Of a stretch of DNA of 58,715 bases, positions 30,180-58,715 are shown in pieces. Source of the DNA: a virus (Duplodnaviria; Caudoviricetes). A program made the position numbers and the translations under genes. The DNA lies in IMG/VR virus record IMGVR_UViG_3300032561_000025, positions 1 through 58,715 of that record; one strand, written 5' to 3'. Position 1 is the first letter of the stretch; each line of letters opens with the position of its first letter. The notes beneath the pieces are model-generated. The model searched no databases. It was not told the origin of the DNA and was given only the letters and a program-made list of their open reading frames with translations.

Positions 30180-30183
30180 CGCG

Positions 30184-31449: not shown

Positions 31450-31463
31450 GGTAGTTTAAATTC

Positions 31464-32261: not shown

Positions 32262-32347
32262 GTGCCGGGCTTGAGTTTCTTGACAAAACTTTCCTACAGG
32301 CAACAAGAAACGTCCTTTCGGACATTTCTAATTTGGAAAGAAACGCG

Positions 32348-37494: not shown

Positions 37495-37544
37495 GATGGG
37501 GTCACTATCACGACCCCATGCGATTTGCCAGTTTAAACGATCCC

Positions 37545-42252: not shown

Positions 42253-43398
42253 ATGAGCGAGGAAAATCCTTCCGTCGAAGTCGGGGAAAATCCTGACTCC
42301 CGTCGTGGCCTGCCAAGCGCATCGGAGTACCCCCGGATACATGGGTGTCCGGGGTATCTCCAGCTAAAGAGAAAATTACCCCATAGGGATCCGGTGGTTT
42401 TTGACTACACCGAGAGCGGAAAACGAATTCACGCTTATCTGGCTGATCCATCGTCTGATAAGAAAATGTTGGGGCTCAAGGACGAGGAAATTGAATTCGC
42501 TGTCCGGTGCTGGGAGCAGTGGATCTCCATGCTCGACAAATATTTCCCGGCAGTCGATCCCGCGACTGCCGTCGAGGATATTGTCGAGCGCAGAATATTC
42601 CTGAAGGGTCCGGACGGCAGGGATATTTTCAGCGGACAACTCGACCGAATCATGGTCGCGCCGAAATTAATCATCGGCACCGACTGGAAAACCGGACGCA
42701 TACCGGTTGAAAGCGTCGAGTCGAATATGCAGATCAGAGCCTATGTCGTTCTGATCGCAGAACTTCTAGGTTATGATCGGACCATCCTGATGTCGATCAT
42801 TCAGCCGTGGATTTCCCAGACTCCAATCCTCGTTGAATACGGCCCCGAGGAAATCAAGAAGGCGAGGGAGGAATTATTTGCCACCCTGCGCCTTGCCGAG
42901 GAGCCCAATGCCCTCCGGATCCCCGGTGAGCACTGCCGTTACTGCCCATGCCGGGCAAACTGCGAAGAAGCGAAATTTGTCACTATGGAGCTTTCCAAGG
43001 TAGAGCCCGCTACCCTTACCTCAAACGACCAGATTGCGGCCTTCCTAGGCCGTGTATCGCTTGCGGAAAAGGTCATTGAGGCGGTAAAGGCAGAGGCCAA
43101 GCGCAGGATCGAGGCCGGTGAGGTAATACCCGGATGGTGCCTTCGCCCCGGTCGCAAGATGGATGAAATCACCGATGCCGAGTTGGTTTTCACCCGCGCC
43201 TCAAATCTCGGCGTAACCCCACAGCAGTTCATGTCTGCCGTCAAAATCGTAAAGGGATCCCTGAAGGATGCCGTGAAAGCGGCCACCAATCAGAAGGGTA
43301 AATCATTGGACGAAACGATGGCAGTCCTGCTCGATGGTTGCGTCACGGAAAAGTTGGCGGCTTCGTTCCTAGCGCAGGAAACCAAACCGTCTGTTTAA
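42253..43398 (+). CDS. Cas4-like PD-(D/E)xK exonuclease (DUF2800-like)
   Basis: SAS...CPG, G..IH, D....DWKTG, Q..AY and G.HCRYCP....C (Fe-S cysteines). Confidence 0.8.
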   Translation: MSEENPSVEVGENPDSRRGLPSASEYPRIHGCPGYLQLKRKLPHRDPVVFDYTESGKRIHAYLADPSSDKKMLGLKDEEIEFAVRCWEQWISMLDKYFPAVDPATAVEDIVERRIFLKGPDGRDIFSGQLDRIMVAPKLIIGTDWKTGRIPVESVESNMQIRAYVVLIAELLGYDRTILMSIIQPWISQTPILVEYGPEEIKKAREELFATLRLAEEPNALRIPGEHCRYCPCRANCEEAKFVTMELSKVEPATLTSNDQIAAFLGRVSLAEKVIEAVKAEAKRRIEAGEVIPGWCLRPGRKMDEITDAELVFTRASNLGVTPQQFMSAVKIVKGSLKDAVKAATNQKGKSLDETMAVLLDGCVTEKLAASFLAQETKPSV

Positions 43399-43401
43399 AC
43401 A

Positions 43402-43563
43402 GTGATCTACTATCATCCCATAATTGTTTCCATCGCGGTAATTCTTGTTTTGTGTCCTGCGGCTTTTTACCTGATTTTCAGGTTGATGGACAAATACCAA
43501 GAAATTGACGATCCAACTCGCCGCCTTGGAAATCCGTTCGATCCGGATGACCGAAGACCGTGA
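43402..43563 (+). CDS. Small single-TM protein (53 aa, not in ORF track)
   Basis: GTG start; IIVSIAVILVLCPAAFYLIF hydrophobic helix. Confidence 0.45.
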   Translation: MIYYHPIIVSIAVILVLCPAAFYLIFRLMDKYQEIDDPTRRLGNPFDPDDRRP

Positions 43564-43678
43564 CGATAAGTTTTGGCTTGATATTACCCTAAACTGCTAA
43601 TAGTCCGTCATTCAACATTGAATAATCCGGAAATCCACAGGGGTTTCTAGCTGTGCCGAGCCGATCACTTCAAGGGGA

Positions 43679-43712
43679 GGGCTTGGGGGCGCACAACCCC
43701 CAAGCCCTTTTT
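43679..43712 (+). terminator. Intrinsic terminator
   Basis: GGGCTTGGGGG-cgcacaa-CCCCCAAGCCC followed by TTTTT. Confidence 0.8.
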
Positions 43713-43745
43713 GTTTCTTGAGCCCCCCGATGCCGAGCCGGGAAA

Positions 43746-44153
43746 TCAATTCTGCGCCGTGCCCTTGTGCGTTCCGTCAAGCTCTAGGATCAGGTGGTCG
43801 AGCTTGCTCTCCATCCGGTCCTGCTTTTGGTTTCCTAAGGCGATCAGTTCCTTCAACGACGCCATTTCCTTGTCCCTACCCTGAACCTGCTGCTGCCATT
43901 CGGCGCGAGGAACAAATAGGGCCATGTCGTGCTCAGTCGTATTCGTCTGGACGTACTGCTCAAGCGGCTTGAATCGGAGATCAATGTCTTTGAACTCTTG
44001 GTCGAATTGACCGCGAGCGTAGCTAATGCTAACGACGGTCCCGGCGATCCCCATCAATATAGGGATCAATGCTGCCATGATGATTTCTGCCCACCTCGAC
44101 CGCTTTTCGTCCTGATGGGAGGAGTTTTCGCCGTGGTAGGTCGGAGGACTCAT
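43746..44153 (-). CDS. Single-TM coiled-coil protein (lysis accessory, i-spanin-like)
   Basis: N-terminal TM helix then a coiled coil; last gene of the lysis cassette. Confidence 0.5.
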   Translation of the reverse strand: MSPPTYHGENSSHQDEKRSRWAEIIMAALIPILMGIAGTVVSISYARGQFDQEFKDIDLRFKPLEQYVQTNTTEHDMALFVPRAEWQQQVQGRDKEMASLKELIALGNQKQDRMESKLDHLILELDGTHKGTAQN

Positions 44154-44761
44154 GGTGTACCTTTTGTTAGACTCGCTGCATAAGTTGAAAGTTCATGGCA
44201 GTAAACCACCCCTCCCGGCTTGGGAGGAAGGATGTGGGTCACGCTGGGAAGGTCGGGATACCCGAGCAGCGGCAGATGCGGGACAACATCGTTTGCCATC
44301 TGAAACGCCGTTCCCTTCAGGGTCTTGAGGACGTTGATTGCCCGGTCCGAAATCATCTTCGGGCAGGCGAACAGGCAGTATTCCTTGGAGCCGTACTCGA
44401 CCGCCCATAATGCGGCCAGCGGACCTCCACGCGAATGCCCACCCACAATCGCCCAGTCGTACTCGTTTAAACTCTTGCCCGAGGACGTTCTCAGGCTCTC
44501 GTATGTTCCCCAGATACCAGCGGCCACCTCGCCGTATGGCGTATCGTCAGGCTCGATCTCGCAGTCTAGGATCCATTCTTCAAGCGTGCGGGTGCCTGCG
44601 AAGCCAATCGTCAGGCACCCCGTATCGTCAAGGCACACGGCCCCGTAGGGAACCATCCTGTCGCCCATGTCCAGACCGAGGATCGTGTCGATCACATGGA
44701 CGTTCGCAGCGGGTAGGGCATACGCCGCTGCGATTGCGGACAGGTACGGGGCCGGGTTCAT
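44150..44761 (-). CDS. Class 3 lipase (alpha/beta hydrolase)
   Basis: F.GT....EW..D, GHSRGG nucleophile elbow, NDVVP.LP and a C-terminal His. Confidence 0.85.
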   Translation of the reverse strand: MNPAPYLSAIAAAYALPAANVHVIDTILGLDMGDRMVPYGAVCLDDTGCLTIGFAGTRTLEEWILDCEIEPDDTPYGEVAAGIWGTYESLRTSSGKSLNEYDWAIVGGHSRGGPLAALWAVEYGSKEYCLFACPKMISDRAINVLKTLKGTAFQMANDVVPHLPLLGYPDLPSVTHILPPKPGGVVYCHELSTYAASLTKGTP

Positions 44762-44765
44762 GCGG

Positions 44766-45074
44766 CTACTTTAGCTGCATCGTGGTCGCCGCGCCCGCTC
44801 CGTTGACCACATCCAGTTGGAACACCGGATTCACGATGTCGTGGATGGTCACATGGAGTTCTTGGGCCGTGATCTCCGTGGAGGTCTTGGTGATGTTCTT
44901 CCCGGTGATGGTGCCTCCCGCACCGCCCGTCACGCCAACGACGAGGTTGAGTTGGCCGATGGTGCCGTTGGGGATGTGCTGGTTGATGAAGCCGTCAGGG
45001 GTGATGACGCAGCCGCCGAAGGCGAGGGCCAGAGGCAGCGAGATGAGAGTGGTCAGGATTCGTTTGATGTTCAT
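44766..45074 (-). CDS. Lipoprotein (o-spanin-like)
   Basis: MNIKRILTTLISLPLALAFGG-C lipobox; ATG at 45074. Confidence 0.6.
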   Translation of the reverse strand: MNIKRILTTLISLPLALAFGGCVITPDGFINQHIPNGTIGQLNLVVGVTGGAGGTITGKNITKTSTEITAQELHVTIHDIVNPVFQLDVVNGAGAATTMQLK

Positions 45075-45346
45075 GGGGTGGGAAGGGTTGGCGGGGCGAA
45101 GATGTTGGGGAAGGGATGATTTTGAAGGTATCCCCTGACATCGGCCAGCCCGGTGAAGAAGGGAACCGCGCAGAGGTGGATCAATTCCACCTCGATTGTG
45201 TGGGGCTGTAGGTCGAGGTGGGCAGCACCATCGGCAACGGCAATGCCGCCACCAACGGGAGCACCCACGGGGAACCCATCGATAAAGCCCGTGAAGAAGG
45301 CGGCAAGAGCACCGCCGAACCAGACCTTGAATGCTGATGTGTTCAT
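45071..45346 (-). CDS. Putative holin
   Basis: 91 aa with two hydrophobic segments and a YL..HP.P end; ATG at 45346. Confidence 0.55.
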   Translation of the reverse strand: MNTSAFKVWFGGALAAFFTGFIDGFPVGAPVGGGIAVADGAAHLDLQPHTIEVELIHLCAVPFFTGLADVRGYLQNHPFPNIFAPPTLPTP

Positions 45347-46125
45347 GTGATTTGGGCCAAATCGGACTGGAGGGTTGCGAGGTCGAATCCTGACGGGGAT
45401 TCCCCGTTTGCCTCGATCCACTCGGGGGTAAGGCAGGCGTAGGCTTCATCAAAATACCTGTTCCAGAAGTCCCATGTCATCCTCTGCTTCTGCCCCCAAG
45501 TGATGCAGGTGAGTCCGTCCTCGTCAGCCGCGACGATAATGACGCAGTGTCCTCCCCATGAGCCGGGGGATCCAGCCGGGGTGGGATCGATGTCCCATAC
45601 GCCGCCAACCTGAGCCTGAGCCGACACAGGAAGCGCAACCCCCGTGTAGAGGAATCCGAACAGGTAGAGGGCCTGCATCACCTCCACCTTGTTCAAGGGG
45701 TTCACAGCGGCATACGCAGCTATCCTGTGGCCCGTCCCAGCGATGCCGTTAGTCCTCCAGTAGTTGAGGACGTTCAACTCGATCCCCCCCTGATCCGTTG
45801 AGGGGTCTGCGGGGTTGAACCCGCAAGCCGCCTCGTAGGCCAGCAGGATGTCATGGTCCGAGATAGTCACCTCGGGGGGATTTGCGTTCGCCGTGATCGT
45901 CTGAACCGCATGGCCCATCCCTGAACAGGTGCAGCATCCGTAACGGTCGTTGTTCATCATTCCGCATGGGAAGGTGACAAGCTTAGTCCAATCCACGCTC
46001 GCGGGGGGAGGAGGCAATGCCCTAACGTACTTCGCTAGGCGCAGCGTGCGCGGATCATGGCGAGGGCTTTTCTTGCCCAGCTTCACCTTGAGGAAATCGG
46101 TACTCGCATGAGTTGGATTCGGCAT
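45343..46125 (-). CDS. Papain-fold (C1-like) cysteine peptidase, candidate endolysin
   Basis: ND.YG.CT.S..GH (catalytic Cys), D.GG, WGGHCV (His) and TWG. Confidence 0.7.
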   Translation of the reverse strand: MPNPTHASTDFLKVKLGKKSPRHDPRTLRLAKYVRALPPPPASVDWTKLVTFPCGMMNNDRYGCCTCSGMGHAVQTITANANPPEVTISDHDILLAYEAACGFNPADPSTDQGGIELNVLNYWRTNGIAGTGHRIAAYAAVNPLNKVEVMQALYLFGFLYTGVALPVSAQAQVGGVWDIDPTPAGSPGSWGGHCVIIVAADEDGLTCITWGQKQRMTWDFWNRYFDEAYACLTPEWIEANGESPSGFDLATLQSDLAQIT

Positions 46126-46193
46126 CGTAGGGGGGAAGGTTGAGATAGAGGTGATGAAGGTGATCGTAGGTGGGATCGAATCGCTGGCAGGAG

Positions 46194-46523
46194 TCAGTGA
46201 AGGGGCATCCGGCTCCGTCGCAGCGGGGTTCGATCATGGGTTGTCGGGAGGGGGTGGCGGGGGGGGGCGTAGAGATACCAGTCGCCCTTCCCATCGGCAT
46301 CCACAACCTCGTCAACGAGGACTAGGGAGGGGTTGGTGGAGGGGTCGCCGTAGACGGCCTGCACTTCGCTTGCCCAGTCTATGCCGTAGAGGGTGCCGTT
46401 CGTGGAGACGCCTGACCACTGGTTATATGACCCGTGGTAGGTGTCCCGCAGGTACAGGCAAACCTTGGCGTCGGCGTCCTGCGCGGCGGCGTAGCTGTTG
46501 AAGGTTAAGAAGGTGCGGCTCAT
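46194..46523 (-). CDS. Small protein coupled to the LamG-like gene
   Basis: ATGA overlap with 46520; the C-terminus probably depends on a poly-G tract. Confidence 0.55.
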   Translation of the reverse strand: MSRTFLTFNSYAAAQDADAKVCLYLRDTYHGSYNQWSGVSTNGTLYGIDWASEVQAVYGDPSTNPSLVLVDEVVDADGKGDWYLYAPPRHPLPTTHDRTPLRRSRMPLH

Positions 46524-48562
46524 GGCGTGACGATCTTCCACTTGCTAATCTGATAATTTGCGATTTGGGCCTGTGTCGCTGCGCTGTCGGCTGCGCTGCG
46601 CAGGAGAAGTTCGCTGACTAGGATGTTCGTGTATTGGGACGATCCGGTTCCTGCACCGCTCCCGAGCGTCAGCCCGTTCATGTTGTTTGCGCCGGGGGTC
46701 ACGTTTACCGTAATGGGTGCGGTTAGGTTGACCTTCCCCGATGAGCTTGCCCCGTTGAATACAAACGCGGAAGCGCATAGGTTCTGGGTTGCCTTCGTGT
46801 TGGAAAAGCCGCTGGTGGCGTTTGAGCCAGCGTAAAGCCGAAGCGGCTTTGTGGGTGTGTCGGCCCCCACAACGAAAAGCGCACCCGTATTGTAGGTGCC
46901 GCCATCAAACACATCCTGATAGGTTGGCGTTGTGCCGGAATTTAGCAGGGAGAATGTCGCATAGATGGACTCCGGCTGCGCGTAGCTAAACGGCGCACTT
47001 GCCATGTAGCTGCTCGTCCCGTTGAAGTACGCGCAATTTTGGCCCACGACGCACGCGCCGCCGTTGATCGTCCAGACCTCGCCCGTAGTGGCAGTCCATG
47101 TCGCGCCCGAGGAGTAGCTGGCGTTCGGGTTGCAGGTGAGGGTTGCCACCGCGCTTGCCACCGTGACGCTGTAGATGCTGCCCGTCCACGGCCCCACCGT
47201 TGCAGTTACTGCGGCGTTTGTGAGCGTATGAACCGATCCAACCGTCCCTAGCGGGGTTGACCCGTTCTGCGTGAAGGTCGCGCCCACCCCGTCAGTCCAT
47301 GCGATTGCCAGCGTGCCGCGTGCGCCCGCCGTGATGGAGCAGGCAGAGGTCGAGTCCACGTTCGTCGCCGCGCTGCCATCGCCCACCACAAGGCGCACAA
47401 CTCCCGTTGTGAGCAGAAGCACGCGAATCCCGTTGTTGCCGCTCAACTTGTCAAAGAGGGTTACGTTCGATGCGGGCGCATAGCTGGACAGGGCCAAGTC
47501 AAAGGTGAGCGTCGTATTGCCCGTAATGGTCTGCGTTGGCGTGGTCAGCGTGTATCCCGCCGTGCCATTGTTGTAAGAGTATTTCGTCCCTGCATACGCC
47601 AGCAATAATGGCTCGCTGGCAGCTACTAATTGCACGAGGTCCCTCTCGCCTGCGATGCGTGCTCCTGTCGCGCCGGTGCTGGCGATCGTCACCGTCGCCT
47701 GCGCGTTGTTCGGATTGAACTCCGTGAACTGGGGTAACAGCTTTGCCACCCGCGAGAAGTCCGCGTCAAACACAAGGTAGGCGTTGCTGATCGGACCCGT
47801 GTTCGTCGTTCCGCTGGCGATGGAGTTGTAGACACAGGCGCGATACATGACACCGGCCATATTGCCGTTGTTCTGCTCCGTGGCCCCAAGCTCAAGCTGA
47901 TAGGTTCCCGCGTGGATCGCCCCGGAGGCTATTGTCTGCTGCGCCCCAAGCGTTGACCAAGAAATGCCGTCCGGCGAAATGTAGAAGTTGACGTGTCCCG
48001 ACGAAGCCTCGTATGTCACCCTGCACCACGAAACGGAATAGGCCGCAAGCCCGGTTGCGTTCTGTGAAGTCGCCGCCCGCGTCGAACTCCCGTTGGTGCT
48101 CGTCAAGAAAACGAACCTGCCGCTGGAGTTTATGTAGAAGGTGTAGTCCCGGCTCGTGGAGACATCGTCCTTCGAGATCAGGCTTGGGTTGTTCGGCTGG
48201 GATGACCAACTCGACAGCATGATCTGGCACCTTAGATCAATGTCGCCCGTTATTTGCAGCGCAGCGGAACTCGGCGCCCAAGCGTAGTTATATGTGACCC
48301 CATTCAGCACCAAGCAATTCGTGGAGCTGTTGCCGCTGCGATCCGCGATCAGCGAAATCTTCGGAGGAGACGAACTGTCGCACTGGTAGGTCGCGTCGGA
48401 CTTGCTGCCTTGAAGCGAATACAGAGCCGCGGCACCGCCCGACTTGCTGAACAGGTAGCCGACATTCGATCCGCTAAGAATCGAAGCCCATTGCGCCGAA
48501 ACAGGCAGGACCGCAGCCGCAAGCAGGGCGAGCAGAACTGCTAAACGGTGGAGGAATTTCAT
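46520..48562 (-). CDS. Signal-peptide protein with concanavalin/LamG-like domains
   Basis: MKFLHRLAVLLALLAAAVLPVSA signal; LQITGDIDLR..I and V.FY.S.DG..W..LG beta-sandwich motifs. Confidence 0.65.
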   Translation of the reverse strand: MKFLHRLAVLLALLAAAVLPVSAQWASILSGSNVGYLFSKSGGAAALYSLQGSKSDATYQCDSSSPPKISLIADRSGNSSTNCLVLNGVTYNYAWAPSSAALQITGDIDLRCQIMLSSWSSQPNNPSLISKDDVSTSRDYTFYINSSGRFVFLTSTNGSSTRAATSQNATGLAAYSVSWCRVTYEASSGHVNFYISPDGISWSTLGAQQTIASGAIHAGTYQLELGATEQNNGNMAGVMYRACVYNSIASGTTNTGPISNAYLVFDADFSRVAKLLPQFTEFNPNNAQATVTIASTGATGARIAGERDLVQLVAASEPLLLAYAGTKYSYNNGTAGYTLTTPTQTITGNTTLTFDLALSSYAPASNVTLFDKLSGNNGIRVLLLTTGVVRLVVGDGSAATNVDSTSACSITAGARGTLAIAWTDGVGATFTQNGSTPLGTVGSVHTLTNAAVTATVGPWTGSIYSVTVASAVATLTCNPNASYSSGATWTATTGEVWTINGGACVVGQNCAYFNGTSSYMASAPFSYAQPESIYATFSLLNSGTTPTYQDVFDGGTYNTGALFVVGADTPTKPLRLYAGSNATSGFSNTKATQNLCASAFVFNGASSSGKVNLTAPITVNVTPGANNMNGLTLGSGAGTGSSQYTNILVSELLLRSAADSAATQAQIANYQISKWKIVTP

Positions 48563-48568
48563 GGCTGA

Positions 48569-50056
48569 TTAAGCGCCGGAAGCCGCAGCCCAGGTGCCGA
48601 TGTAGCCAGTCCCGAAGGTGAAGCTCCAATGCACGCCGTCCGAAATCGCGACCGCGTAGTCGCCGACCGAAGGCGACGCATCTTGGAAATAGTAGTTTAC
48701 CGTGATGGCAGCGCCCGAGACGTAGAAGATGTCGCCGGAATAGGGCTGGAAGTTGATGTGATGCGCCCCGACAGCGGCAGCGACGATCATAACCGCCATG
48801 CCCTTGTTGCCCGCAGCAGCAGCCGGAAGCGTGTAGGTGCGATTAGCGGCGGTGCAGTCGGTGTAGACGATGGTCAGCGGAGCGACCAGCGTCATCGCGC
48901 CCGCAGTCGTGTCGGGAGCCGCAATCGTTCCGACGAAAGCAGCCCTGCCTGCAGCATTGGCGAAAGCGTCGGTCGCGACAGCAGTCGTATTATCCAGAAC
49001 CGACTGGGTTGTCGCCGTAGTCGTGCTAGGAAGGGCCGTTGTGCTCGACAGAACACCCAGCGAATTATTAACCACTACCCCAGCCGTCGAAAACGTGCTC
49101 ACTACCGGACTCACCGCGAACGTGGCCGTCCCCGTAGCCGAAGCCAGCGTGATCCCCGTCCCGAACGTACCCGTGCCGAGAGTCAGATCGCTCAACGCAG
49201 CCGATTTTACCGTGTTCACTCCCAAGAGCGATGTACCCGTGAACGTGTTCGTTCCCGCTGCCAGTTGCGGATAACGGGCGTCTAGCTGGGACAGGGCTAC
49301 GTCGTTGCTGACCGCATACCAGATGCCCGGTGTTCCCGCCGCGTACTGGAAGGAAACCGCCTGATTGACAAGAGGCATCGAATAGCTCGTCCCTCCCCCG
49401 ACCTTGTTGAAGACATCGGTCCCGCCCGTGTTGATCGTGACCCCGTTCGATCCTCCCATGATCACCAGCTTTGCCGCCACCCTTGTCTTGTCGGCAGGAG
49501 CGGTGGGAAGCGTGATCGTGATCGCGTTGCTCGTCGTGTCGCAGGGAACGAAGTCACCCGGCTGGGCCGCGTAGGTCGCCGCCGTCTTCACCGCAGTCGT
49601 GTTTAAACCAACCGAGAAATACTGCCCGGTCCCAACCGTGGGAAATGCCAGACCGTTTATCGATGTCAGACCTGTCGGCGTTAATGTCCACGATGCCGCC
49701 GATCCGTTGTTCGTAAGGATTGCATTCGCCGTACCCGCGCTCATTGATGGAAGGATGCTCGATCCGCTCACGATCAGCCCTCCGTTCGCGTCTACACTCA
49801 GGTACTGGAACTTCCCCGATGGATTCACAGCGGTCCCAAACACCGCGCTGGGTGCGCTTACCGTTGCGCCCGGCAGCGAAGAGGTTGCCAGCATCAGCGC
49901 ACCGTTCGCATCGACGTTCAGGTATTTAAACACACCTGACGGGTTCACCGCCAGACCCGCCACATCGGTCGGCGCGGGAGTTGTCGCCATGACCGGTATC
50001 CCCAAAGCAAGCAAGGCGACCGAGAAAAGTTTGTTCATCAGTGTTTTCATGGGCAT
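48569..50056 (-). CDS. Signal-peptide fibre-like protein
   Basis: Signal peptide, a duplicated AVNPSG.F.YL.VDANG.L motif and TITLP.A...G fibre domains. Confidence 0.65.
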   Translation of the reverse strand: MPMKTLMNKLFSVALLALGIPVMATTPAPTDVAGLAVNPSGVFKYLNVDANGALMLATSSLPGATVSAPSAVFGTAVNPSGKFQYLSVDANGGLIVSGSSILPSMSAGTANAILTNNGSAASWTLTPTGLTSINGLAFPTVGTGQYFSVGLNTTAVKTAATYAAQPGDFVPCDTTSNAITITLPTAPADKTRVAAKLVIMGGSNGVTINTGGTDVFNKVGGGTSYSMPLVNQAVSFQYAAGTPGIWYAVSNDVALSQLDARYPQLAAGTNTFTGTSLLGVNTVKSAALSDLTLGTGTFGTGITLASATGTATFAVSPVVSTFSTAGVVVNNSLGVLSSTTALPSTTTATTQSVLDNTTAVATDAFANAAGRAAFVGTIAAPDTTAGAMTLVAPLTIVYTDCTAANRTYTLPAAAAGNKGMAVMIVAAAVGAHHINFQPYSGDIFYVSGAAITVNYYFQDASPSVGDYAVAISDGVHWSFTFGTGYIGTWAAASGA

Positions 50057-50071
50057 TATGCGTTTAAATCC

Positions 50072-50929
50072 TCAATAGGTCACAATTACAATCCCAGAAC
50101 CTCCAAACCCCGGAGCTACGTTTGTTTGGCTTCCTGAGTAACCGCCGCCACCTCCACCACCGGATCCAGTGTTGGGAGTTGCATCCGTGGCGACACCATT
50201 GTGGTCACCACCATGCCCAGCACCGGCTGTTCCGGGCGGCGTGGAATAATTACCTCCAACGCTGGCGACTCCGGTTGCCCCGCCTCCCCCACCGGCTCCA
50301 TAATACACACCGGCATAAAGATACCCGGTCCCACCATTGCCGCCAACTCCTCGGGTTGAGTAGACCCCATCTGAGCCTGTGGATGCCTGACCGCCGCCAC
50401 CACCTCCCGCCGAATTTGCCCCATTGCCTCCGGTATTTCCTTGCCCGGCTGTACCGGAACCGGGGTTCGAATAAGTTGCCGCTGCTCCACCGCCTGACCC
50501 ACCGGTTGCTCCAGCGGAGTTGTAATATCCTCCATGACCACCTCCCACCGCGACAAGGGTTCCAAATATCGATGACCCTCCATTCGTATCCCAAGAACCA
50601 TAATTTCCTACGGTTACCGTAATGGTTGATCCCGGCGTGACCGAATAGGTTGTGTTTCGGATTACGCCGCCGCCGCCGCCGCCGCCGCCAGCCTCACCGT
50701 CAGGAGTTGTTGCCTCTCCGCCACCACCACCGCCGCCCACCACAAGGACATCAACACTCGTTATACCCACAGGCACCGTCCAGCTTGTCGTTCCAACCGT
50801 GCTGAACGTGACTGTTCCGTGGGACACAACCTGACCCCACAGACCAAACGGGATCTGCTGAAAGGCGATAAGCGGGGCGCATACCGCCACCGCGCACGCG
50901 ATCAGGAATAGCTTAGTAGTTCTGGACAT
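50072..50929 (-). CDS. Signal-peptide glycine-rich fibre-tip-like protein
   Basis: F...[22 protein letters not shown]...[10 protein letters not shown] glycine-rich domain after a signal peptide. Confidence 0.7.
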
Positions 50930-52547
50930 AGGAGCCTTGCAGATAACCGGATACGGCGTTGTATTTTACCGTGTAGGTGTCCGTGTGCGTCCCTGAAGTC
51001 ATTATCGGAGCGTTATTGCTGGGCCATTTCATTGTGGGCCAAGTAACCGTGTAGGCATTCGCACCCGTCTGGTGGATGTCGATGGTGATTATTTGCCCGT
51101 CCTGAACATGGGCGAAGGAAATCGTGCAGTTTCCACCGCCAACCGTGGTCAGGGTAAGGTCAAAGGAATTGCTCAGAGCCCAGTCGATTGTCGCCGCGCC
51201 ACCGCTTTCCGTAACTGTCACCGTACCCGGTGTCATGTTTTGGTTCGCCGCAGCCACCGTTGTCGCCCCGGTCCCGCCATTGCCCACTGCAAGCGTTCCA
51301 GTTACTCCTCCGCTGCCCGAGGTAGAGAGATTAATCGCGTTGACGGTGACCGTACCAGCCGTGTTCGTAAGGCCCGTAGAAAAGGTCAGAGCGGTCGGAT
51401 TAGGGATTGCGAACCATCCTTTAGTTCCTCCGCTGTTCGTCCCGTAATAATAACTGTTCCCCGGAGAAGCACTGTCGTTGGTCAGCGTGACCGTGCCTGA
51501 GGAATTGTAGACCGACTGGGAAAACGTGTACGCGGTCCCCGGAGGCGTTGCCCATGTCCCGTCTCCGCGCCAGTACGTCGATGCCGATGCCGATGTCCCG
51601 CTGTTTAAATTCCCAACCGGGAGATTCCCGGTCACCCCGCCGGATCCCGCGCTCGCAAGGCTGATTGCGTTTACCGTAATCGTCCCGAGGGTATTTGTCA
51701 GGCCGGTCGAGAACGAAAGTGCTGTCGGATTCGCAATGGCGAACCAGCCGCGAGTCCCGCTTGAATTTGTCCCGTAGTAGTACGAGGCCGCAGGAGTAGG
51801 GGTATCCCCGGTTAGGGTGATCGTCCCGGATCCATTCGTGACGGATTGGGCAAATGTAAGCGTCGATTGCTTACCGGCCAGCGCACTGCTCAAGTCCGTC
51901 TGTGCAGAAAGCGTTCCTCCAATCGATCCCCAGTTTGCACTGCCTGCCCCTCCTGACGCATTCAGCGTGCTGCCAGACATCGAAAGGTTTGTTCCCAGAG
52001 TCGCGTTCGCCCATGCCGATCCGTTCCAATAAAGAAAATTATTCAGGGACGGAGTGGCCGGTGCTGTGATCCTTGCGTTCAGTGCCGTGTTTAAATCGGT
52101 CTGGTTCGATAGGGTTCCCGTGATTGATCCCCACGTTCCGCTCCCACTTGCGTTAAGGGTCGCCCCGGCAAGGGAAAGATTCGTCCCCAGAGTAATATTT
52201 GTAAATCCACCGGATCCGTTTCCCGCGAGAAGCTGGCTCGTTGTTGCCGTCGTAACCGGTGCCTTGGTGCCAAGAGCAGAGACGAGATCGGTCTGGTTTG
52301 TAAGCGTTCCGGTGATCGCACCCCATGACGCGCTTCCCCCTGTCCCCCCCACAATCGTTACCCCGGTGAAATCCACAGTGATTCCGGAACTAAAATTGTA
52401 GTAGGTTATCCCCGAAGTGTTGATCGTTCCGATGTGTCCCGATGTCCCGTTTGGCAACACCGTGACCGCCTGATGCTGGGCTAACGCGCCGCCACAAATT
52501 GCCAGCGAAAACCAAACCGTAAAGATCAGTTTAAACAGATTTTTCAT
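50913..52547 (-). CDS. Signal-peptide repetitive fibre protein
   Basis: Signal peptide ending ALA-Q, WG.I.GTL..QTDL x3, a duplicated ~85-aa block and [14 protein letters not shown]. Confidence 0.7.
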
Positions 52548-52801
52548 CAGAGTGTCCTCACCCAGATCACGTTGTTGGTCATCGAGTCGTAATCGTTTGG
52601 AAGCAGGAAGGTGACTCCATCATCCGCCTCTCCCGCTCCCTTTGCCCGCAGCTTCCACTCCTGACTGTCATCGTTCAGGCTGAAAACATAGGCGCACGGG
52701 AATTGTAGGCCAAGCGTGGGGATTCCACGGATCCCGGCGATGCTGGTGATCTGGCCTTGGAATGCAACGACCTGTGCCTGTGGAAGCGGGAATTGGTACA
52801 T
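52547..52801 (-). CDS. Small virion-associated protein, paralog of the upstream gene's C-terminus
   Basis: Shares DD...WKLR....GE.D....F.LP.DY....NN.IWVR with 52801-53379. Confidence 0.65.
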
Positions 52802-53379
52802 CAGCGGATCCTCACCCAGATTTTATTGTTTGAAACGAGGCCGTAATCGAACGGGAGAATGAAGCCATTGTCGTTGTCATCCTCGCCAACCGCACGCTGC
52901 CGCAGCTTCCAGATCTCCATGTCATCGCTGATGCTCACGGCGATGGTCTGAGGAATCACGGTTTGCGTTGTCGGCAACTGCCTTATGGCATCGTGCGTGG
53001 TCAGGTCACCCCGAAACTCCACCACCGACTGCTCCGGGAAAGCGAACACCGTCTCGCTCGCCTTCGTCAGCGAGTACAGCTTCTGCTCCGAGGCGATCAA
53101 CACCGCAACCTGACGGTTCATGCCGGTGGAAGGCATCACGTTGCACTGGAATATCAGGCACACCGGGCTGTCGAGAACCGATCCAAGAATCGGCTCGATA
53201 CCCGGAGCGGACCGCACAACGCCATCATCAAACCGCACGTTTGATGCCGCAGTCGCATAGCGCGGATCCGGCTGGTCACCGGGAATGCGCGTCATCAGCC
53301 CGAGGGTCGGCGACTTGATCACCACCTCAAACCGCCCCATGCCGGGGCGCATGAAATCTTTTTCGAGTTTACGTCTCAC
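52801..53379 (-). CDS. Nozzle-like N-terminal fragment fused to a small repeated domain
   Basis: GL.T..P....P.......NVRF..G......G resembles the start of P22 gp10-like proteins. Confidence 0.55.
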   Translation of the reverse strand: MRRKLEKDFMRPGMGRFEVVIKSPTLGLMTRIPGDQPDPRYATAASNVRFDDGVVRSAPGIEPILGSVLDSPVCLIFQCNVMPSTGMNRQVAVLIASEQKLYSLTKASETVFAFPEQSVVEFRGDLTTHDAIRQLPTTQTVIPQTIAVSISDDMEIWKLRQRAVGEDDNDNGFILPFDYGLVSNNKIWVRIR

Positions 53380-54080
53380 GACTTGATGATCATGCGAAGC
53401 CCTAGAGAGGGCTGAAGATTATTGTGCGAGGTGCCTCCTCCGGTCGATCCGGTCGCAGATGCGGAATGGTCGGCGAGAATGCCACCAGCAGCACCCACGT
53501 TTCCGTTTGCCTGCGCGTTATTCAAATTCGCCGAAACGCTGTGGGTGTGGGCGGGCATTTCGTCAACGGTCAGCGTGTGGGTTTCCTCGCCTTCCTCTCC
53601 GCCCAGAGTCCAGTTCGTCGCGTCGGGTGCGTCACCGGTCCCTAGGCCAACCGCTGTCCTACCCTTTAGGTTCGGGAGCCCGAAATTCGTAACCCCGTCG
53701 CCTCCGAAGGTTGTGCCTAAAATCGCGGCAAGGGCCGGATAGGTTGCAATCAATTCCAGGGATCCGTCGCACTCCAGCCACCCCGAGGGAACCGAGGCAC
53801 CGCCATACGGGGCGATTAAACCCACCGGAATGAAATTCCCCACCACATCCCATGAGGGGGTTGAACTCGGTCCCGTGGACCGCAGGATCGTCCCCGCCGC
53901 GCCATACGGTGTCGGAAGGCCGTTCGGGACAGCCGAGGCGTTCAGCTCCCCCGTGGTCATGTTGAACGACACACTCAGGAAATTCTGAAGGTACGTCCAA
54001 ATCTTGCGGATTTCTGATGCTCCCGCGCTGATCGCATTTGAGTCGGCGGGTTGGGTAGGATCGATGATGGGGAGAGACAT
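53376..54080 (-). CDS. Tail collar domain protein
   Basis: PVG.I..Y.G..VP.GWL.CDG....YP.L...LGT.FGGDG.TNF.LP.L.GR, GEETHTLT..EMPAHTH and HNNLQP. Confidence 0.85.
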   Translation of the reverse strand: MSLPIIDPTQPADSNAISAGASEIRKIWTYLQNFLSVSFNMTTGELNASAVPNGLPTPYGAAGTILRSTGPSSTPSWDVVGNFIPVGLIAPYGGASVPSGWLECDGSLELIATYPALAAILGTTFGGDGVTNFGLPNLKGRTAVGLGTGDAPDATNWTLGGEEGEETHTLTVDEMPAHTHSVSANLNNAQANGNVGAAGGILADHSASATGSTGGGTSHNNLQPSLGLRMIIKS

Positions 54081-54097
54081 AAGAGTTCCTGTTTAAA

Positions 54098-54748
54098 CTA
54101 GAAGCCAGACATCCTGAACCTTCTTCCGCGAACCTCGCGGAAGCCGTCATCCGCAGCCGCAAGCTGGTACTGACGCTCAACTTCGGCCTGCGCAGCCTGT
54201 GCCATCTGCAAGGCGTCCGGGGTTCCAACGTGCCGGTAGGCGTACTGCTTCGCCTGTTCAAGCACCAGCATTGGATATTCCTTCGTCAGGTAATTCGAAT
54301 CCGTACCACCGGACAGGTCCGCAAAATAAAGGTAGCAGTCGAGTTGGAAGGTGGTCGTTGATCCGACCTGACCCAGAGTGTTTAAACTCCAGTTCGTGCC
54401 GTCGAAGTCGATGTACGCCTTCCGGTCCGGGGCTCCAACCTGAATCTCCAGCAGCCGCATCACCTCCTGCTTGCTGTAGAGAAACCAGTTCACAAACCCC
54501 TGCGGCGTTGTCGCATCCGTTCCGCGCAGTGGATTGATTCCGCTCTGCGGCTCCTTGAACGTAGCGGGCAGGTTGACCGATCCGTTCCCTCCGGGAATCG
54601 TCAGGCTGATCGTGTTCTTCATGCCGCGCCACGACCGCCTACGCTGTAGCTCGGACAGGGCCGTGTTGACCCATGTGGTCAGAATCCCGATCTGCGTGTC
54701 CTGCTTGGTGCAGTCGAGGAGAAGGGTCCGGTATTGGTCTAAGGTCAT
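54098..54748 (-). CDS. Head-tail adaptor / tail tubular protein A-like (paralog 2)
   Basis: WVN.A..ELQR, LP..FKEPQ.G and YLT..YP..VL; located after the capsid genes. Confidence 0.65.
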   Translation of the reverse strand: MTLDQYRTLLLDCTKQDTQIGILTTWVNTALSELQRRRSWRGMKNTISLTIPGGNGSVNLPATFKEPQSGINPLRGTDATTPQGFVNWFLYSKQEVMRLLEIQVGAPDRKAYIDFDGTNWSLNTLGQVGSTTTFQLDCYLYFADLSGGTDSNYLTKEYPMLVLEQAKQYAYRHVGTPDALQMAQAAQAEVERQYQLAAADDGFREVRGRRFRMSGF

Positions 54749-54751
54749 GGG

Positions 54752-55390
54752 TTATTCCTTGTCGGGCCGGGGCGCGGCGTTCGCCGCTCCAACATCGACC
54801 CCGGTTATCCGCTGCATCTCAGTCTGCCACGCCTGCTCATGCTCCTGCCACACCGGATCGCTGATTGACTGGAAAATCAGGGAAAGCGTCTTCGACAGGA
54901 TTGCGTTCGGGTAAAACGTCAGCAATGGCGTACCCTTTGTCAGGTCGGTCACCACATCCGGGTAGGCGTAGTAATAGACGAGGATCGCCCATGCCGCCGA
55001 TGCCACCGCAGGAGGCAGCAAACCTAGCTGGAAGGCCGAGTTGTCCTGCGTGAATACCAAGTATGGGCTTGGAAGGAACGAAGCCGCCAGACGCTCTATT
55101 TCGCTCCTGCTGTAGACCGGGCAGGGTGCCTGCGTCCCGCTTCCGATCTTTGCAAACGACCAGAACCTCCCGTTCTGCGGCTCCTTCCAGTTCAGCGGAA
55201 GGGCAATCGTTCCCGCACCGGCTGGCAACGTCACCGTCGCCGTCGCCTTCATCTGCTCAAATGAATGCGCCGCCGCCGTGTCACGAACCGCCCGATTGAT
55301 GAAATCCGCGTAGCTCGGCGCAATATCCGGCCTGTTTACACTCGTATTCAGGATGGCGATTACGTCGTTGAAACTTTGGGGAATTGCCAT
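54752..55390 (-). CDS. Head-tail adaptor / tail tubular protein A-like (paralog 1)
   Basis: NRPD.....DFIN.A, LP..WKEPQ.G and LLT.YP..IL. Confidence 0.65.
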   Translation of the reverse strand: MAIPQSFNDVIAILNTSVNRPDIAPSYADFINRAVRDTAAAHSFEQMKATATVTLPAGAGTIALPLNWKEPQNGRFWSFAKIGSGTQAPCPVYSRSEIERLAASFLPSPYLVFTQDNSAFQLGLLPPAVASAAWAILVYYYAYPDVVTDLTKGTPLLTFYPNAILSKTLSLIFQSISDPVWQEHEQAWQTEMQRITGVDVGAANAAPRPDKE

Positions 55391-55408
55391 GTTAGTTTAA
55401 ACGAAACG

Positions 55409-55443
55409 AAAAAGGCGGCGGTCCCGCACCGGGAGCCGCCGCC
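55409..55443 (-). terminator. Intrinsic terminator after the capsid operon
   Basis: Minus strand GGCGGCGGCTCCCGGTGCGGGACCGCCGCC followed by TTTTT. Confidence 0.8.
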
Positions 55444-55488
55444 CAAGGACCGCGCACACCAACCTGACCGCGACGTAGAACCTGCGCG

Positions 55489-55683
55489 TCAGATGCCGTG
55501 GACGGCTCCCGGCGCGGACTTGGGGGTGTTTTCCTTGTCGATCTGGTCGATCTTCTTCGTGGGAGGCATCCCGCCGATGGTGGCGATCTGCTCCTCCGGG
55601 GTGTTGCTGGGCGAATGAACCTTGCCGCCGCTCGGACCCTTGGTGCTGCCGGGCTTGGAGGCTTCGGAATAGGACTTCTTCAT
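55489..55683 (-). CDS. Small basic protein
   Basis: 64-aa ORF at the end of the capsid operon, with high-expression codon usage. Confidence 0.55.
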   Translation of the reverse strand: MKKSYSEASKPGSTKGPSGGKVHSPSNTPEEQIATIGGMPPTKKIDQIDKENTPKSAPGAVHGI

Positions 55684-55696
55684 GGTGGTGTGGACG

Positions 55697-56032
55697 TTAT
55701 TGGATGACGATGCTGTAGCGGTCTGCTACTTTCAGAATCTGGGTTGCGATCTCAAAATCTTGGCACAGGTAGCTTTGGCCGGGAAAGACGAACTTCGTGC
55801 CGTCTTCGAAGGTTATTCGCTCCCTTGGGTTGGTGTTCTTGACGAATCGGATGGCCTTGAAGGTTTCCCTGTCGATCTTGACCGTCGCGGATAGCGGACG
55901 CTCGATGATCGGCTCGGGTTCCACAGGTGTCTTTTTCGTCCCCTCCTTTGTGCCCGCGACACCAGTTGGCGTGTCGCGGGGTGTGTTCAAGATTTCTTCA
56001 GGGCTTCGTACTTGGCGTGACGTTTCGATCAT
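55697..56032 (-). CDS. Hypothetical protein downstream of the major capsid gene
   Basis: 111-aa ORF in the operon. Confidence 0.55.
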   Translation of the reverse strand: MIETSRQVRSPEEILNTPRDTPTGVAGTKEGTKKTPVEPEPIIERPLSATVKIDRETFKAIRFVKNTNPRERITFEDGTKFVFPGQSYLCQDFEIATQILKVADRYSIVIQ

Positions 56033-56074
56033 TCCCGAATGCTTCGGCTCTTGATCGTTACGTCAATCCTAAAC

Positions 56075-57295: not shown

Positions 57296-57304
57296 GATTG
57301 GAAC

Positions 57305-57350
57305 TCCTGTTTGGGTTTAAACTGTGCTACGATGCAGGACCCAAACAGGA
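57305..57350 (-). promoter_or_regulatory. 12-bp perfect stem overlapping the capsid SD
   Basis: TCCTGTTTGGGT (57305-57316) is the reverse complement of ACCCAAACAGGA (57339-57350). Confidence 0.6.
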
Positions 57351-57501
57351 ATATAGTCCTTATGTCAACAACTTTCGTCCTTACGGAAAGTTTGGGATGT
57401 AAACTATTGCGGCCTTTTAGCCTACAATAGATCGTACCGACGCTCCGAGATAACGCCTATTTCCGAATGAAACGATTCAGAAAAACGTATCCCTACAATA
57501 A

Positions 57502-58701: not shown

Positions 58702-58715
58702 GAGTTAAGGTTTCC
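58544..58715. repeat. Terminal direct repeat / circular overlap, copy 2
   Basis: Matches 1-172 with one mismatch. Confidence 0.95.

Follow-up and report, generated by a model that had tools for sequence, protein, structure and literature searches.

The window, i.e., the whole 58,715-nt stretch of DNA analysed here, is the almost complete genome of a short-tailed phage that has not been cultured. Four consecutive minus-strand genes, SP1–SP4, occupy positions 46520–52547, and on sequence reading each begins with a leader of the Sec/signal peptidase I type (Table 1). They lie inside the late structural operon, tightly coupled to upstream virion genes, and each overlaps the preceding gene or sits no more than 15 nt from it. 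A strong terminator-like hairpin between convergent strands likely marks the end of the late transcription unit containing them; across positions 43000–58715, neither promoter-like sites (7 vs 5.4 in shuffles) nor terminator-like sites (17 vs 14.3) are in excess. Leaderless receptor-binding candidates in the window are the collar-domain fibre and a pectate-lyase-like tailspike. The upstream neighbours g192 and g84 have a C-terminal domain in common (42% identity over 79 aa).

Table 1. Features of the SP1–SP4 region and of one further gene of the window.
Feature	Position	Strand	Description
g147	20319–20762		borderline heuristic pass
Terminator-like hairpin	43674–43712	.	16-bp stem, 9 G-C pairs, T run
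g115	46194–46541	-	115 aa, leaderless, directly after SP4
SP4	46520–48562	-	680 aa ORF
SP4 leader	48494–48562	-	residues 1–23, predicted cleavage between VSA and Q
SP3	48569–50056	-	495 aa ORF
SP3 central domain	49292–49609	-	about residues 150–255; T4 gp10/CBA120 TSP4 'XD'-like fold
SP3 leader	49985–50056	-	residues 1–24, predicted
SP2	50072–50929	-	285 aa ORF
SP2 leader	50864–50929	-	residues 1–22, predicted
SP1	50913–52547	-	544 aa ORF
SP1 leader	52479–52547	-	residues 1–23, predicted cleavage between ALA and Q
g84	52547–52801	-	leaderless upstream neighbour; fails heuristic
g192	52801–53379	-	leaderless upstream neighbour; fails heuristic
Collar-domain fibre	53376–54080	-	PF07484 Collar (E 1e-22) and PF21939 Gp10_C; leaderless

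Leader peptides of SP1–SP4 and their relatives

All four leaders carry K/R among their first 9 residues, an uncharged hydrophobic core of 11–13 residues (best 8-residue hydropathy 2.2–3.4) and Pro or Gly-Gly at position -4/-5, with Pro/Gly at -4 throughout. Residues -3 to -1 and the residue after the candidate cleavage site are A-L-A and Q in SP1, L-I-A and F in SP2, V-M-A and T in SP3, V-S-A and Q in SP4; none of the leaders contains a lipobox. The basic n-region, hydrophobic h-region and Ala at -1 described in an earlier note on this DNA are therefore present in every case. Such cores have the length of a cleaved signal rather than of a membrane anchor.

Leaders were scored with our own crude, untrained rule, requiring a net positive n-region, a hydrophobic stretch (at least 9 uncharged residues, best 8-residue window with mean hydropathy of at least 2.0) and a -3/-1 site. 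Among 30 chosen window proteins, it passes SP1–SP4 (4/4) and one of the 26 others, the borderline g147. It rejects portal, terminase, capsid, collar-domain fibre and tailspike, and the earlier note was right that the last two possess no signal peptide. When gene sets are built as greedy longest ORFs from the window together with 23 related loci, the rule passes 21 of 457 ORFs, SP1–SP4 included; by our arithmetic, the chance of four passes in a row at this base rate is ~1e-4. Leader anatomy and heuristic thus confirm the claim of Sec signal peptides on four consecutive fibre-like genes: they look to be true Sec signals that can be cleaved, and SP1–SP4 are quite probably exported and cleaved.

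SP1 has 858 homologues, and 59 of the 120 listed pass the heuristic; among the matches listed, 46 of these 59 carry Gln after the candidate cleavage site, as SP1 and SP4 do. For SP4, 28 homologues were found, and at 21 of 23 viral loci the SP4 homologue lacks a leader. In the N-terminal alignment of this family the leader forms a prefix of ~20 aa on otherwise collinear orthologues, and relatives with leaders keep them at the same place. One related genome (locus L009, genome G001) has leaders on three consecutive genes, encoding proteins of 595 aa (including a fibre chaperone domain, Peptidase_S74), 125 aa and 718 aa, and locus L006 has them on two. Same-strand neighbours carry a leader in 10/25 cases beside leader-bearing fibre genes vs 5/137 beside leaderless ones (Fisher p 2.4e-6, counting related sequences as independent and leaving out 10 of 103 loci, with no ORF matching); without two near-identical loci the former count is 8/22 (p 3e-5). 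This pattern suggests that leaders behave as a block trait: where one gene has a leader, its neighbours tend to have one too. Most orthologues in other viral contigs are leaderless.

G001 is rated 98% complete and has a T7-like gene order, in which the position behind the giant internal protein is taken by the three genes with leaders. A scan of 13 further large ORFs there matched none of them to a fibre or spike family, so the leader-bearing genes appear to be its only recognised fibre genes.

Cysteine content differs with the leader. Among 119 listed SP1 homologues, leader-bearing proteins have even non-zero counts in 49 cases, odd in 7 and zero in 2, vs 15, 38 and 8 for leaderless ones (Fisher p 1.7e-10, again with related sequences counted as independent). 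Even counts in the leader-bearing relatives point to an oxidising compartment. The window itself offers no clear reason for periplasmic folding: the mature SP1–SP4 contain 1, 0, 2 and 10 cysteines, respectively, i.e., an odd number in SP1 and none in SP2, and glycosylation motifs are unenriched. In none of the four proteins does the Bacteroidota O-glycosylation motif D-(S/T)-(A/I/L/V/M/T) or the motif D/E-x-N-x-S/T exceed shuffles, which lends no support to the earlier idea of periplasmic glycosylation; plain N-x-S/T lies above the shuffle mean in SP1 only (20 vs 12.4).

Mature domains and the g115 protein

In SP1, tail-fibre repeats rich in Gly, Ser and Thr make up the body together with a C-terminal beta domain, and the protein matches phrog_25379 'tail protein' (E 1.8e-10); the sole difference of its variant P0179 is a 25-aa deletion. 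SP2 is a stand-alone glycine-rich domain placed almost directly after the leader (residues 44–285, PF21722 Gly_rich_2, E 3.9e-23), with further matches to phrog_2295 and phrog_863. The model of SP4 (mean pLDDT 71) matches tandem laminin-G/neurexin LNS domains (Foldseek E 2.5e-10), and the protein is predicted to be a triple LamG/concanavalin-like lectin; similar LamG proteins include 'structural protein' entries in Synechococcus and Cellulophaga phages. The fibre repeats, glycine-rich domain and LamG-like lectin domains named in the earlier note are borne out.

In the structure model of SP3, the leader is followed by a fibre-like stretch of low confidence, a confidently modelled central domain (pLDDT 90–97 over residues 151–250), a linker and a C-terminal beta domain. 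Foldseek aligns the central domain with CBA120 TSP4 residues 1–335 (7rej_A; E 3.1e-5, rmsd 2.4 A, 108 columns), and also with T4 gp10 (2fl8_A), a T4 baseplate chain (5iv5_AC) and baseplate chains of Klebsiella phage KP1. The gp10/TSP4-like module is a docking hub of branched receptor-binding complexes. The 1449 library matches of SP3 fall mostly on residues about 150–270, and its two closest C-terminal relatives, P0030 and P0035, carry leaders as well. Pfam and PHROG searches revealed no recognised N-terminal virion-anchor domain in SP1–SP4, and no domain is common to their N-termini. Taken with the models, the matches suggest that SP1–SP4 are appendage-like, receptor-binding-type proteins.

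At 9 of 23 viral loci, a homologue of the small, conserved g115 comes directly after the SP4 homologue, whether or not the fibre gene has a leader. A complex model of g115 with mature SP4 scored 0.78, vs 0.09 for the best of 3 controls; in a benchmark, the mark set for this score was reached by 58/80 solved complexes and 2/110 mismatched pairs. Runs agreed on at least 52% of contacts, with partner pLDDT of at least 71, and the modelled interface involves the most conserved motifs of the SP4 family (residues 60–71 and 295–317). The leaderless g115 is predicted on this basis to bind SP4 across compartments. If it is a folding chaperone, its leaderless state argues against periplasmic folding.

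Where the probably exported proteins may act

Since the leaders look genuine, stand on appendage proteins of a late structural operon and are absent from the collar fibre and tailspike, an extracytoplasmic step, as the earlier note proposed, is the simplest reading; block-wise leaders and even cysteines back it at class level, and its glycosylation part is not supported. We hypothesize that SP1–SP4 are made late in infection, exported by the host Sec system and trimmed by signal peptidase I. They would fold in the periplasm of a host that we infer to have two membranes, apart from the cytoplasmic head and tail, and would come together with particles and with partners lacking leaders, g115 among them, only once the holin opens the inner membrane. 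This opening would fall shortly before the outer membrane goes, and SP1–SP4 would then attach to the particles as accessory parts for host recognition. The least certain step is this attachment to virions at lysis, and we put forward the whole chain, from late export through periplasmic folding to docking at holin opening, as our preferred but tentative reading. Leaderless SP4 orthologues occupying the same slot count in its favour, and SP2, being little more than one domain, counts against it. The position upstream of the lysis genes, cited earlier in its support, is real, but fibre genes commonly lie there and it has little discriminating value. Export of virion parts is not known to us to have been shown for any tailed phage, and our literature search found neither such a case nor a paper describing an export route for phage tail-fibre-type proteins.

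The main alternative, only slightly less likely, is that SP1–SP4 are exported and never join the virion, serving as secreted or envelope-bound lectin- or adhesin-like factors derived from fibre genes. On the infected cell, they might bind receptors or cover them up, providing superinfection exclusion or keeping progeny off debris, or they might be displayed in a Bdellovibrio-like manner. The genuine-looking leaders suit such roles, as do the missing virion-anchor domains and the bare Gly_rich_2 of SP2, a domain that in cellular proteins often comes fused to a prepilin-type leader (several matches with PF07963). As the phage keeps a leaderless collar fibre and tailspike, infectivity need not depend on SP1–SP4 being part of the particle. 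Exported phage proteins acting on the envelope are well known (Llp, Cor, Lom, Bor) and provide a precedent. Another is given by the MAT fibres of Bdellovibrio, described in PMC10769870 as phage-fibre-like, with a signal peptide, and shown on the cell surface. Against a life wholly off the virion stand the virion docking-hub fold in SP3, the predicted binding of SP4 by leaderless g115 and the leader-bearing genes of G001, its only recognised fibre-type ones. Furthermore, SP1–SP4 are translationally coupled within the late structural operon rather than set apart as morons, and a path through the outer membrane is not apparent, with no T9SS or autotransporter domain found by Pfam. The window holds no leaderless paralogue of SP1–SP4 bearing the same binding domain, so a decoy aimed at the receptor of the virion itself would have no counterpart.

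Improbable in our view are N-termini that stay uncleaved and either tether the proteins to the membrane, in SAR-like or signal-anchor fashion, or serve as hydrophobic plugs in the particle, keeping the proteins at the inner membrane or on the cytoplasmic side. SAR endolysins, membrane-tethered phage proteins released at holin triggering, set a precedent for tethering, and the L, A pair at -3/-1 of SP2, followed by F, is less canonical. However, the cores are short and strongly hydrophobic, not long or Gly/Ala-rich like SAR domains, and all four leaders combine Pro/Gly at -4 with small -3/-1 residues. Even cysteine counts in leader-bearing relatives also argue against tethering, as does the candidate cleavage site followed by Gln in most of the listed leader-bearing SP1 homologues, a pattern tied in PMC5837995 to signal peptidase I processing in Bacteroidota.

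An annotation artefact, with true starts downstream and the hydrophobic codons untranslated, is very hard to credit: further in-frame GTG/TTG/ATG codons exist in SP1 (only at codons 30–31), SP2 (codons 14 and 35) and SP3 (several, including ATG at codon 23; a database gene call two codons later still keeps the leader), but SP4 has no other within its first 45 codons, the annotated starts abut preceding stop codons, with GAGG-type sites upstream of SP1 and SP3, relatives place their leaders identically, and four independent signal-like hydrophobic open stretches would hardly arise by chance (~1e-4, as above).

Comparison with known systems

The closest counterparts are leaderless orthologues in other uncultured phages (e.g., loci L010, L012 and L019; proteins P0005 and P0009). 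They belong to the same family, share the N-terminus that follows the leader and occupy the same slot at the end of the structural module, often with a g115-like gene next to it. They differ in having no signal peptide; in L010, only 4 nt separate the end of the upstream gene from the start, leaving no room for one.

The XD-like fold of SP3 recurs in the CBA120 TSP4/TSP2 and T4 gp10 complexes (rmsd 2.3–2.8 A over 105–108 columns), and these branched complexes and SP1–SP4 alike involve several different binding proteins encoded side by side. Unlike SP1–SP4, the receptor-binding parts of CBA120 and T4 are all leaderless and assembled in the cytoplasm. Phage-encoded, Sec-exported proteins include spanins, SAR endolysins and receptor-blocking lipoproteins such as T5 Llp and Cor, with the receptor blockers encoded beside receptor-binding genes. 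Such envelope proteins are small lysis or exclusion factors, often lipoproteins or uncleaved anchors, whereas the SP1–SP4 leaders lack a lipobox and the bodies behind them are large fibre, lectin and hub domains.

In Porphyromonas gingivalis phages, signal-peptide genes obey the Bacteroidetes Q-rule, with type I signals followed by Gln as in SP1 and SP4; they comprise five genes of unknown function, capsid proteins and spanins, and the term 'tail fiber' is absent from the main text of that article (PMC10367356). The MAT fibres of Bdellovibrio bacteriovorus, as presented in PMC10769870, resemble SP1–SP4 in being phage-tail-fibre-like, beginning with a signal peptide and working outside the cytoplasm, and some end in Peptidase_S74, as does the 595-aa leader-bearing protein of L009. 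In all MAT fibres, according to PMC10769870, the leader is followed by a shared conserved domain of ~130 aa, whereas SP1–SP4 have no N-terminal domain in common, and the MAT genes are cellular, with their fibres displayed on the predator cell, whereas SP1–SP4 belong to a phage late operon.

Leader peptides of SP1–SP4

Four consecutive minus-strand fibre-like genes, SP1–SP4, encode N-terminal leaders that match the anatomy of Sec/signal peptidase I substrates, with cleavage and export predicted. In all four proteins a net charge of +2 (K2/K6 in SP1, R3/K6 in SP2, K4/K9 in SP3 and K2/R6 in SP4) precedes a hydrophobic core of 11–13 residues, within the length range of the h-region of a Sec/SPase I signal (~7–15 residues); the best 8-residue mean hydropathies are 2.24, 3.15, 2.91 and 3.35, respectively. 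The cores are followed by Gly-Gly or Pro at −5/−4 and by the −3/−1 sites ALA↓Q (SP1), LIA↓F (SP2), VMA↓T (SP3) and VSA↓Q (SP4), the Leu at −3 of SP2 being the least canonical cleavage-site residue of the four. The reading frames, n-regions, h-regions and cleavage sites thus agree with the earlier note, which had described four consecutive fibre-like ORFs with signal peptides.

Leaders were scored by a simple self-written heuristic, not a trained predictor, that looks for a net positive n-region, an uncharged hydrophobic stretch and a −3/−1 site. When it was run on 30 chosen window proteins, SP1–SP4 and the borderline protein g147 passed; the portal, terminase, capsid, collar fibre and tailspike failed, and the collar protein and tailspike had already been described as devoid of signal peptides. 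Greedy ORF sets from the window and 23 related loci gave 21 passes among 457 ORFs, a base rate at which four adjacent passes would occur by chance with a probability of ~1e-4.

The annotated starts are well supported. They overlap or abut the upstream neighbour genes, and GAGG-type sites precede SP1 and SP3. True starts downstream of the hydrophobic segments, which would have undone the earlier claim, are improbable; within the first 45 codons of SP4, no further in-frame start occurs. Dual forms produced by internal initiation were likewise rejected, since SP4 lacks an internal start and SP1 lacks any with a ribosome-binding site. No excess of promoters or terminators separates SP1–SP4 from the virion genes, and a strong hairpin closes the unit.

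Leaders of other classes do not fit. No lipobox Cys at +1 was flagged in SP1–SP4, neither an RR motif nor a prepilin motif (G↓F-T-L-I-E) is visible in their sequences, and SP2 does not match PF07963 (prepilin) in Pfam; lipoprotein (SPase II), twin-arginine and prepilin leaders are thus not supported. SAR domains are long N-terminal helices of weak hydrophobicity that are rich in Gly, Ala and Ser and lack a cleavage site; the cores of SP1–SP4 do not fit this description, being short, rich in Leu, Val, Ile and Phe, and followed by −3/−1 sites.

We consider export of SP1–SP4 likely, and the wider class shows two independent hallmarks of it. In statistics that treat related sequences as independent, Gln follows the candidate cleavage site in 46 of the 59 leader-bearing SP1 homologues, and the cysteine counts of leader-bearing homologues are even and non-zero in 49 cases, odd in 7 and zero in 2, versus 15, 38 and 8 for leaderless ones (p 1.7e-10). 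A Gln after the cleavage site is described as a signal peptidase I substrate pattern of Bacteroidota (PMC5837995). Even cysteine counts fit disulfide pairing in an oxidising compartment. The window itself gives a weaker picture, with 1, 0, 2 and 10 mature cysteines in SP1–SP4; paired cysteines, though strong in the wider class, are not a clear reason for export here. Periplasmic glycosylation, suggested in the earlier note, found no backing, the Bacteroidota O-glycosylation motif and D/E-x-N-x-S/T both occurring at or below shuffle expectation in SP1–SP4.

The Gln at +1, present in two of the four window leaders as well, hints at Bacteroidota-type processing, but SD-like 4-mers before 23 of 54 genes genome-wide (versus 16% in random 14-mers) pull the other way, such motifs not being typical of Bacteroidota. 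A (G)TTTAAAC-type motif precedes several gene starts, including that of SP3. In the host search, a genome-contig scan returned nothing beyond two metagenome bins, whose meaning is doubtful, and a helicase query in Atlas gave mostly viral clusters. We infer a two-membrane host solely from the lipoprotein and membrane coiled-coil candidates adjoining a lipase gene.

Genome context and related fibre clusters

The window is rated 93% complete as a whole IMG/VR virus record (58,715 nt) and, judging by its genes, belongs to a short-tailed phage. No tRNA genes were found in it, and no close DNA relative exists among 50,697 deposited phage genomes. Capsid matches to cultured phages are distant only; SP4, SP3, SP1 and two leader-bearing relatives gave partial matches or none against cultured-phage proteins.

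Features of the window and of two other viral contigs
Feature	Sequence	Coordinates	Strand	Remark
SU10/P22-type portal	window	439-2685		
Large terminase	window	3381-4979		
g147	window	20319-20762	-	147 aa
2179-aa protein	window	23640-30179		
Pectate-lyase-like tailspike	window	32348-35167		
787-aa virion protein	window	35131-37494		
Strong hairpin	window	43674-43712		
Post-g115 block	window	43746-46125	-	260-aa phrog_19005 protein
Class-3 lipase	window	in 43746-46125	-	PF01764, E 2.6e-5
135-aa protein	window	in 43746-46125	-	N-terminal membrane segment
Lipoprotein candidate	window	in 43746-46125, start near 45074	-	...LAFGGC
g115	window	46194-46541	-	
SP4	window	46520-48562	-	
SP3	window	48569-50056	-	
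SP2	window	50072-50929	-	
SP1	window	50913-52547	-	
g84	window	52547-52801	-	
g192	window	52801-53379	-	
Collar-domain fibre	window	53376-54080	-	
212-aa and 216-aa virion proteins	window	54098-55390	-	adjacent
Major capsid protein	window	56075-57295		
Contractile-tail baseplate locus	L032	9267-12829	+	245-aa protein, then leader-bearing fibre-motif protein
Loci L027-L029	G001	25682-40653		

The minus strand carries, in order, a scaffold-like gene, the capsid gene, three small virion proteins, the collar fibre, g192, g84, SP1–SP4 and g115, followed by a block with a class-3 lipase, a lipoprotein candidate and membrane proteins, in which a Pfam/PHROG-type search found no classical endolysin domain. 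SP1–SP4 do lie directly upstream of the lysis genes, as noted earlier, but this is an ordinary place for fibre genes and discriminates little between joining of virions at lysis and other fates.

Several neighbouring proteins are related to one another. The leaderless g192 and g84 have a C-terminal domain in common (~80 aa; 42% identity over 79 aa), and the N-terminus of g192 weakly matches a PHROG that the 787-aa virion protein matches too. The 212-aa and 216-aa virion proteins are paralogues (~26% identity over 164–179 aa), both matching phrog_2941. The protein g147, whose N-terminus is hydrophobic, barely passes the leader rule and shows a sub-threshold transglycosylase-like match (PF06737, E 0.0049); it is a possible membrane-tethered wall hydrolase, distant from the lysis block.

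The SP4 family has 28 members in the protein collection, five of them with leaders. Viral-contig scans with SP4 and SP3 as single proteins found nothing, and alignment queries were used instead; among the 23 viral loci with SP4 homologues, the leader is present on the homologue in two only, L006 and L009. It forms a prefix of ~20 residues on otherwise collinear proteins, and leaderless orthologues start exactly at the mature N-terminus in the alignment. In L009/G001 the two preceding genes also carry leaders, and one of these encodes a fibre of 595 aa that contains the chaperone domain Peptidase_S74; in L006 the gene before the homologue does so. Whether homologues keep the signal, a question raised in the earlier note, thus receives a divided answer: some do, with 59 of 120 SP1 homologues among the matches listed passing the leader rule, but the SP4 homologue is leaderless in 21 of 23 loci. 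Among SP3 relatives, the two closest over the C-terminus (P0030 and P0035) are leader-bearing, and another has an ordinary fibre N-terminus. An SP1 variant from the population or the assembly (P0179, 519 aa) is identical save for a clean 25-aa deletion of residues 213–237 in the repeat region.

A viral-contig alignment scan retained 80 of 548 loci, 12 of which have the motif fibre with a leader, and runs of two to four leader-bearing genes occur in L035, L042, L048/50/51 and L100. Leaders are found on 10 of 25 neighbours of leader-bearing fibre genes versus 5 of 137 neighbours of leaderless ones, with related sequences counted as independent; the former figure becomes 8 of 22 once two near-identical loci are dropped. 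These counts and runs mark the leader as a property of entire fibre clusters, which acquire or lose it en bloc in phages that are not related. A common ancestry for the three leader-bearing genomes was rejected, since no homologue of the window capsid protein is detectable in the other two (G001 and G002).

Two of these contigs illustrate the arrangement. G001 is an unrelated 59-kb phage genome, rated 98% complete, with a T7-like order (nozzle, internal proteins, 3490-aa protein). Behind its 3490-aa protein come three leader-bearing fibre-type genes, of which the first encodes a Peptidase_S74 domain; together they occupy the tail-fibre slot, and none of 13 other large ORFs scanned gave a fibre-family match. 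In the baseplate locus L032, the match of the 245-aa protein to a tail-fibre family is confined to positions 1–134 of 445, and the adjacent leader-bearing protein has 941 or 956 aa depending on the start chosen, the latter length being that of the longest ORF. The pair resembles a fibre divided in two, with an anchor that lacks a leader and a distal part that would be exported.

Fold models and the g115 partner

Each of SP1–SP4 has homology to, or the fold of, a fibre or appendage family. SP1 contains repeated fibre motifs and matches the PHROG "tail protein" family phrog_25379, and SP2 consists of the leader and a Gly_rich_2 domain (PF21722), also matching phrog_863. The central domain of the SP3 model (pLDDT above 90) matches the N-terminal XD domains of CBA120 tailspike 4 (7rej_A; Foldseek E 3.1e-5, probability 1.00, rmsd 2.4 Å over 108 columns), as well as T4 gp10 and baseplate chains from a Klebsiella phage, and is present in 1449 library proteins. 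By this match it has a gp10-like XD fold, the docking-hub module of branched receptor-binding complexes of the CBA120 type. SP4 is modelled as tandem LamG/concanavalin-like lectin domains (mean pLDDT 71), resembling many phage "ConA-like lectin" proteins, some of them named structural proteins.

No recognised virion-anchor domain was found in SP1–SP4 using Pfam and PHROGs; the short N-termini that they conserve with leaderless orthologues could be docking peptides. All-against-all BLASTP of the window proteins revealed no paralogue of any of the four and no mutual similarity, and PDB sequence searches with SP4 (as a profile), SP3 and SP1 gave nothing at E up to 1. A kinship of the Gp10_C region of the collar fibre with the SP3 hub domain was rejected for want of a profile match.

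The gene g115 encodes a small, leaderless protein of a conserved family (~90–115 aa) represented in the window and in L005, L006, L013–L015, L020, L021 and L023, with no Pfam or PHROG match. Its members always directly follow SP4-family genes, as in 9 of the 23 viral loci. A complex model of g115 with mature SP4 scored 0.78, versus 0.09 for the best of three controls; of 80 solved complexes, 58 attained that mark, as did 2 of 110 mismatched pairs. Contacts agree by at least 52% across runs, the partner pLDDT is at least 71, and the modelled contacts fall on invariant motifs of the SP4 family. The model supports binding of g115 to mature SP4; g115 may be an adaptor, a chaperone or a tip partner. 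If SP4 is exported, it could meet a cytoplasmic g115 either ahead of export or once the inner membrane has opened, and at no other time.

Possible destinations of the probably exported proteins

Assembly of tailed phages is, in the textbook account, wholly cytoplasmic, and we know of no experimental precedent for exported tailed-phage virion parts. The single most likely mechanism, proposed here tentatively, is periplasmic folding followed by docking at holin opening. SP1–SP4 would be exported while construction of the head and tail core proceeds in the cytoplasm; this accessory host-recognition set would fold in the periplasm, in many relatives with disulfides, and adaptors that lack a leader, g115 for example, would snap it onto particles during the seconds that separate holin opening from rupture of the outer membrane. 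Joining of the virion is favoured by the predicted hub fold of SP3, the leaderless orthologues in the same slot, the fibre slot of G001 and the modelled binding of g115 to invariant motifs of the SP4 family. On the other hand, a chaperone role, which g115 could have, would through its cytoplasmic location speak against periplasmic folding, and the leaderless binding proteins of the window phage could suffice for infection. Of the extracytoplasmic step and joining at lysis put forward in the earlier note, the export is likely, but the joining is only a possibility beside a non-virion fate. Slightly less likely again is the wider reading that two-compartment assembly, with entire fibre clusters turning the leader on or off together, recurs in unrelated short- and contractile-tailed phages (leaders in 12 of 80 viral loci sampled with one fibre motif).

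The main rival, only slightly less likely than docking at holin opening, is that SP1–SP4 are fibre-derived secreted factors that never reside on the particle. MAT fibres of Bdellovibrio, which are leader-bearing phage-fibre-like adhesins, do reach the cell surface (PMC10769870), but SP1–SP4 lack the shared N-terminal domain defining that family, and an outer-membrane route is not evident for them. An uncleaved tether or an annotation artefact is improbable even when the two are taken together.

If export of host-recognition parts and their addition at lysis are routine, phage proteins with leaders, which are mostly dismissed at present as "membrane or secreted, non-structural", should be treated in host-range prediction as candidates for receptor binding. 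Transferring a fibre from one phage to another would then need the leader as well as a host that can oxidise and trim the protein, and the short interval between inner- and outer-membrane rupture would be an assembly step. If they act off the particle, SP1–SP4 would represent a new class of fibre-derived secreted factors of infected cells. In both cases, block-wise gain and loss of the leader on orthologous fibre clusters gives experiments a clean comparative handle.

Among the literature on exported tail fibres, no title or abstract on the signal peptide of a tailed-phage fibre was found. The nearest report in print concerns Porphyromonas phages, in which signal peptides are noted for capsid proteins, spanins and genes whose function is unknown (PMC10367356). 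Another counts signal peptides in two rumen Bacteroides phages, with no proteins named in the passage concerned (PMC5723332). SP1–SP4 are set apart, by description only, from the Bdellovibrio MAT superfamily: they share no common domain of this kind, whereas all MAT members have a beta-rich conserved domain, ~130 aa in length, directly after the signal peptide (PMC10769870).
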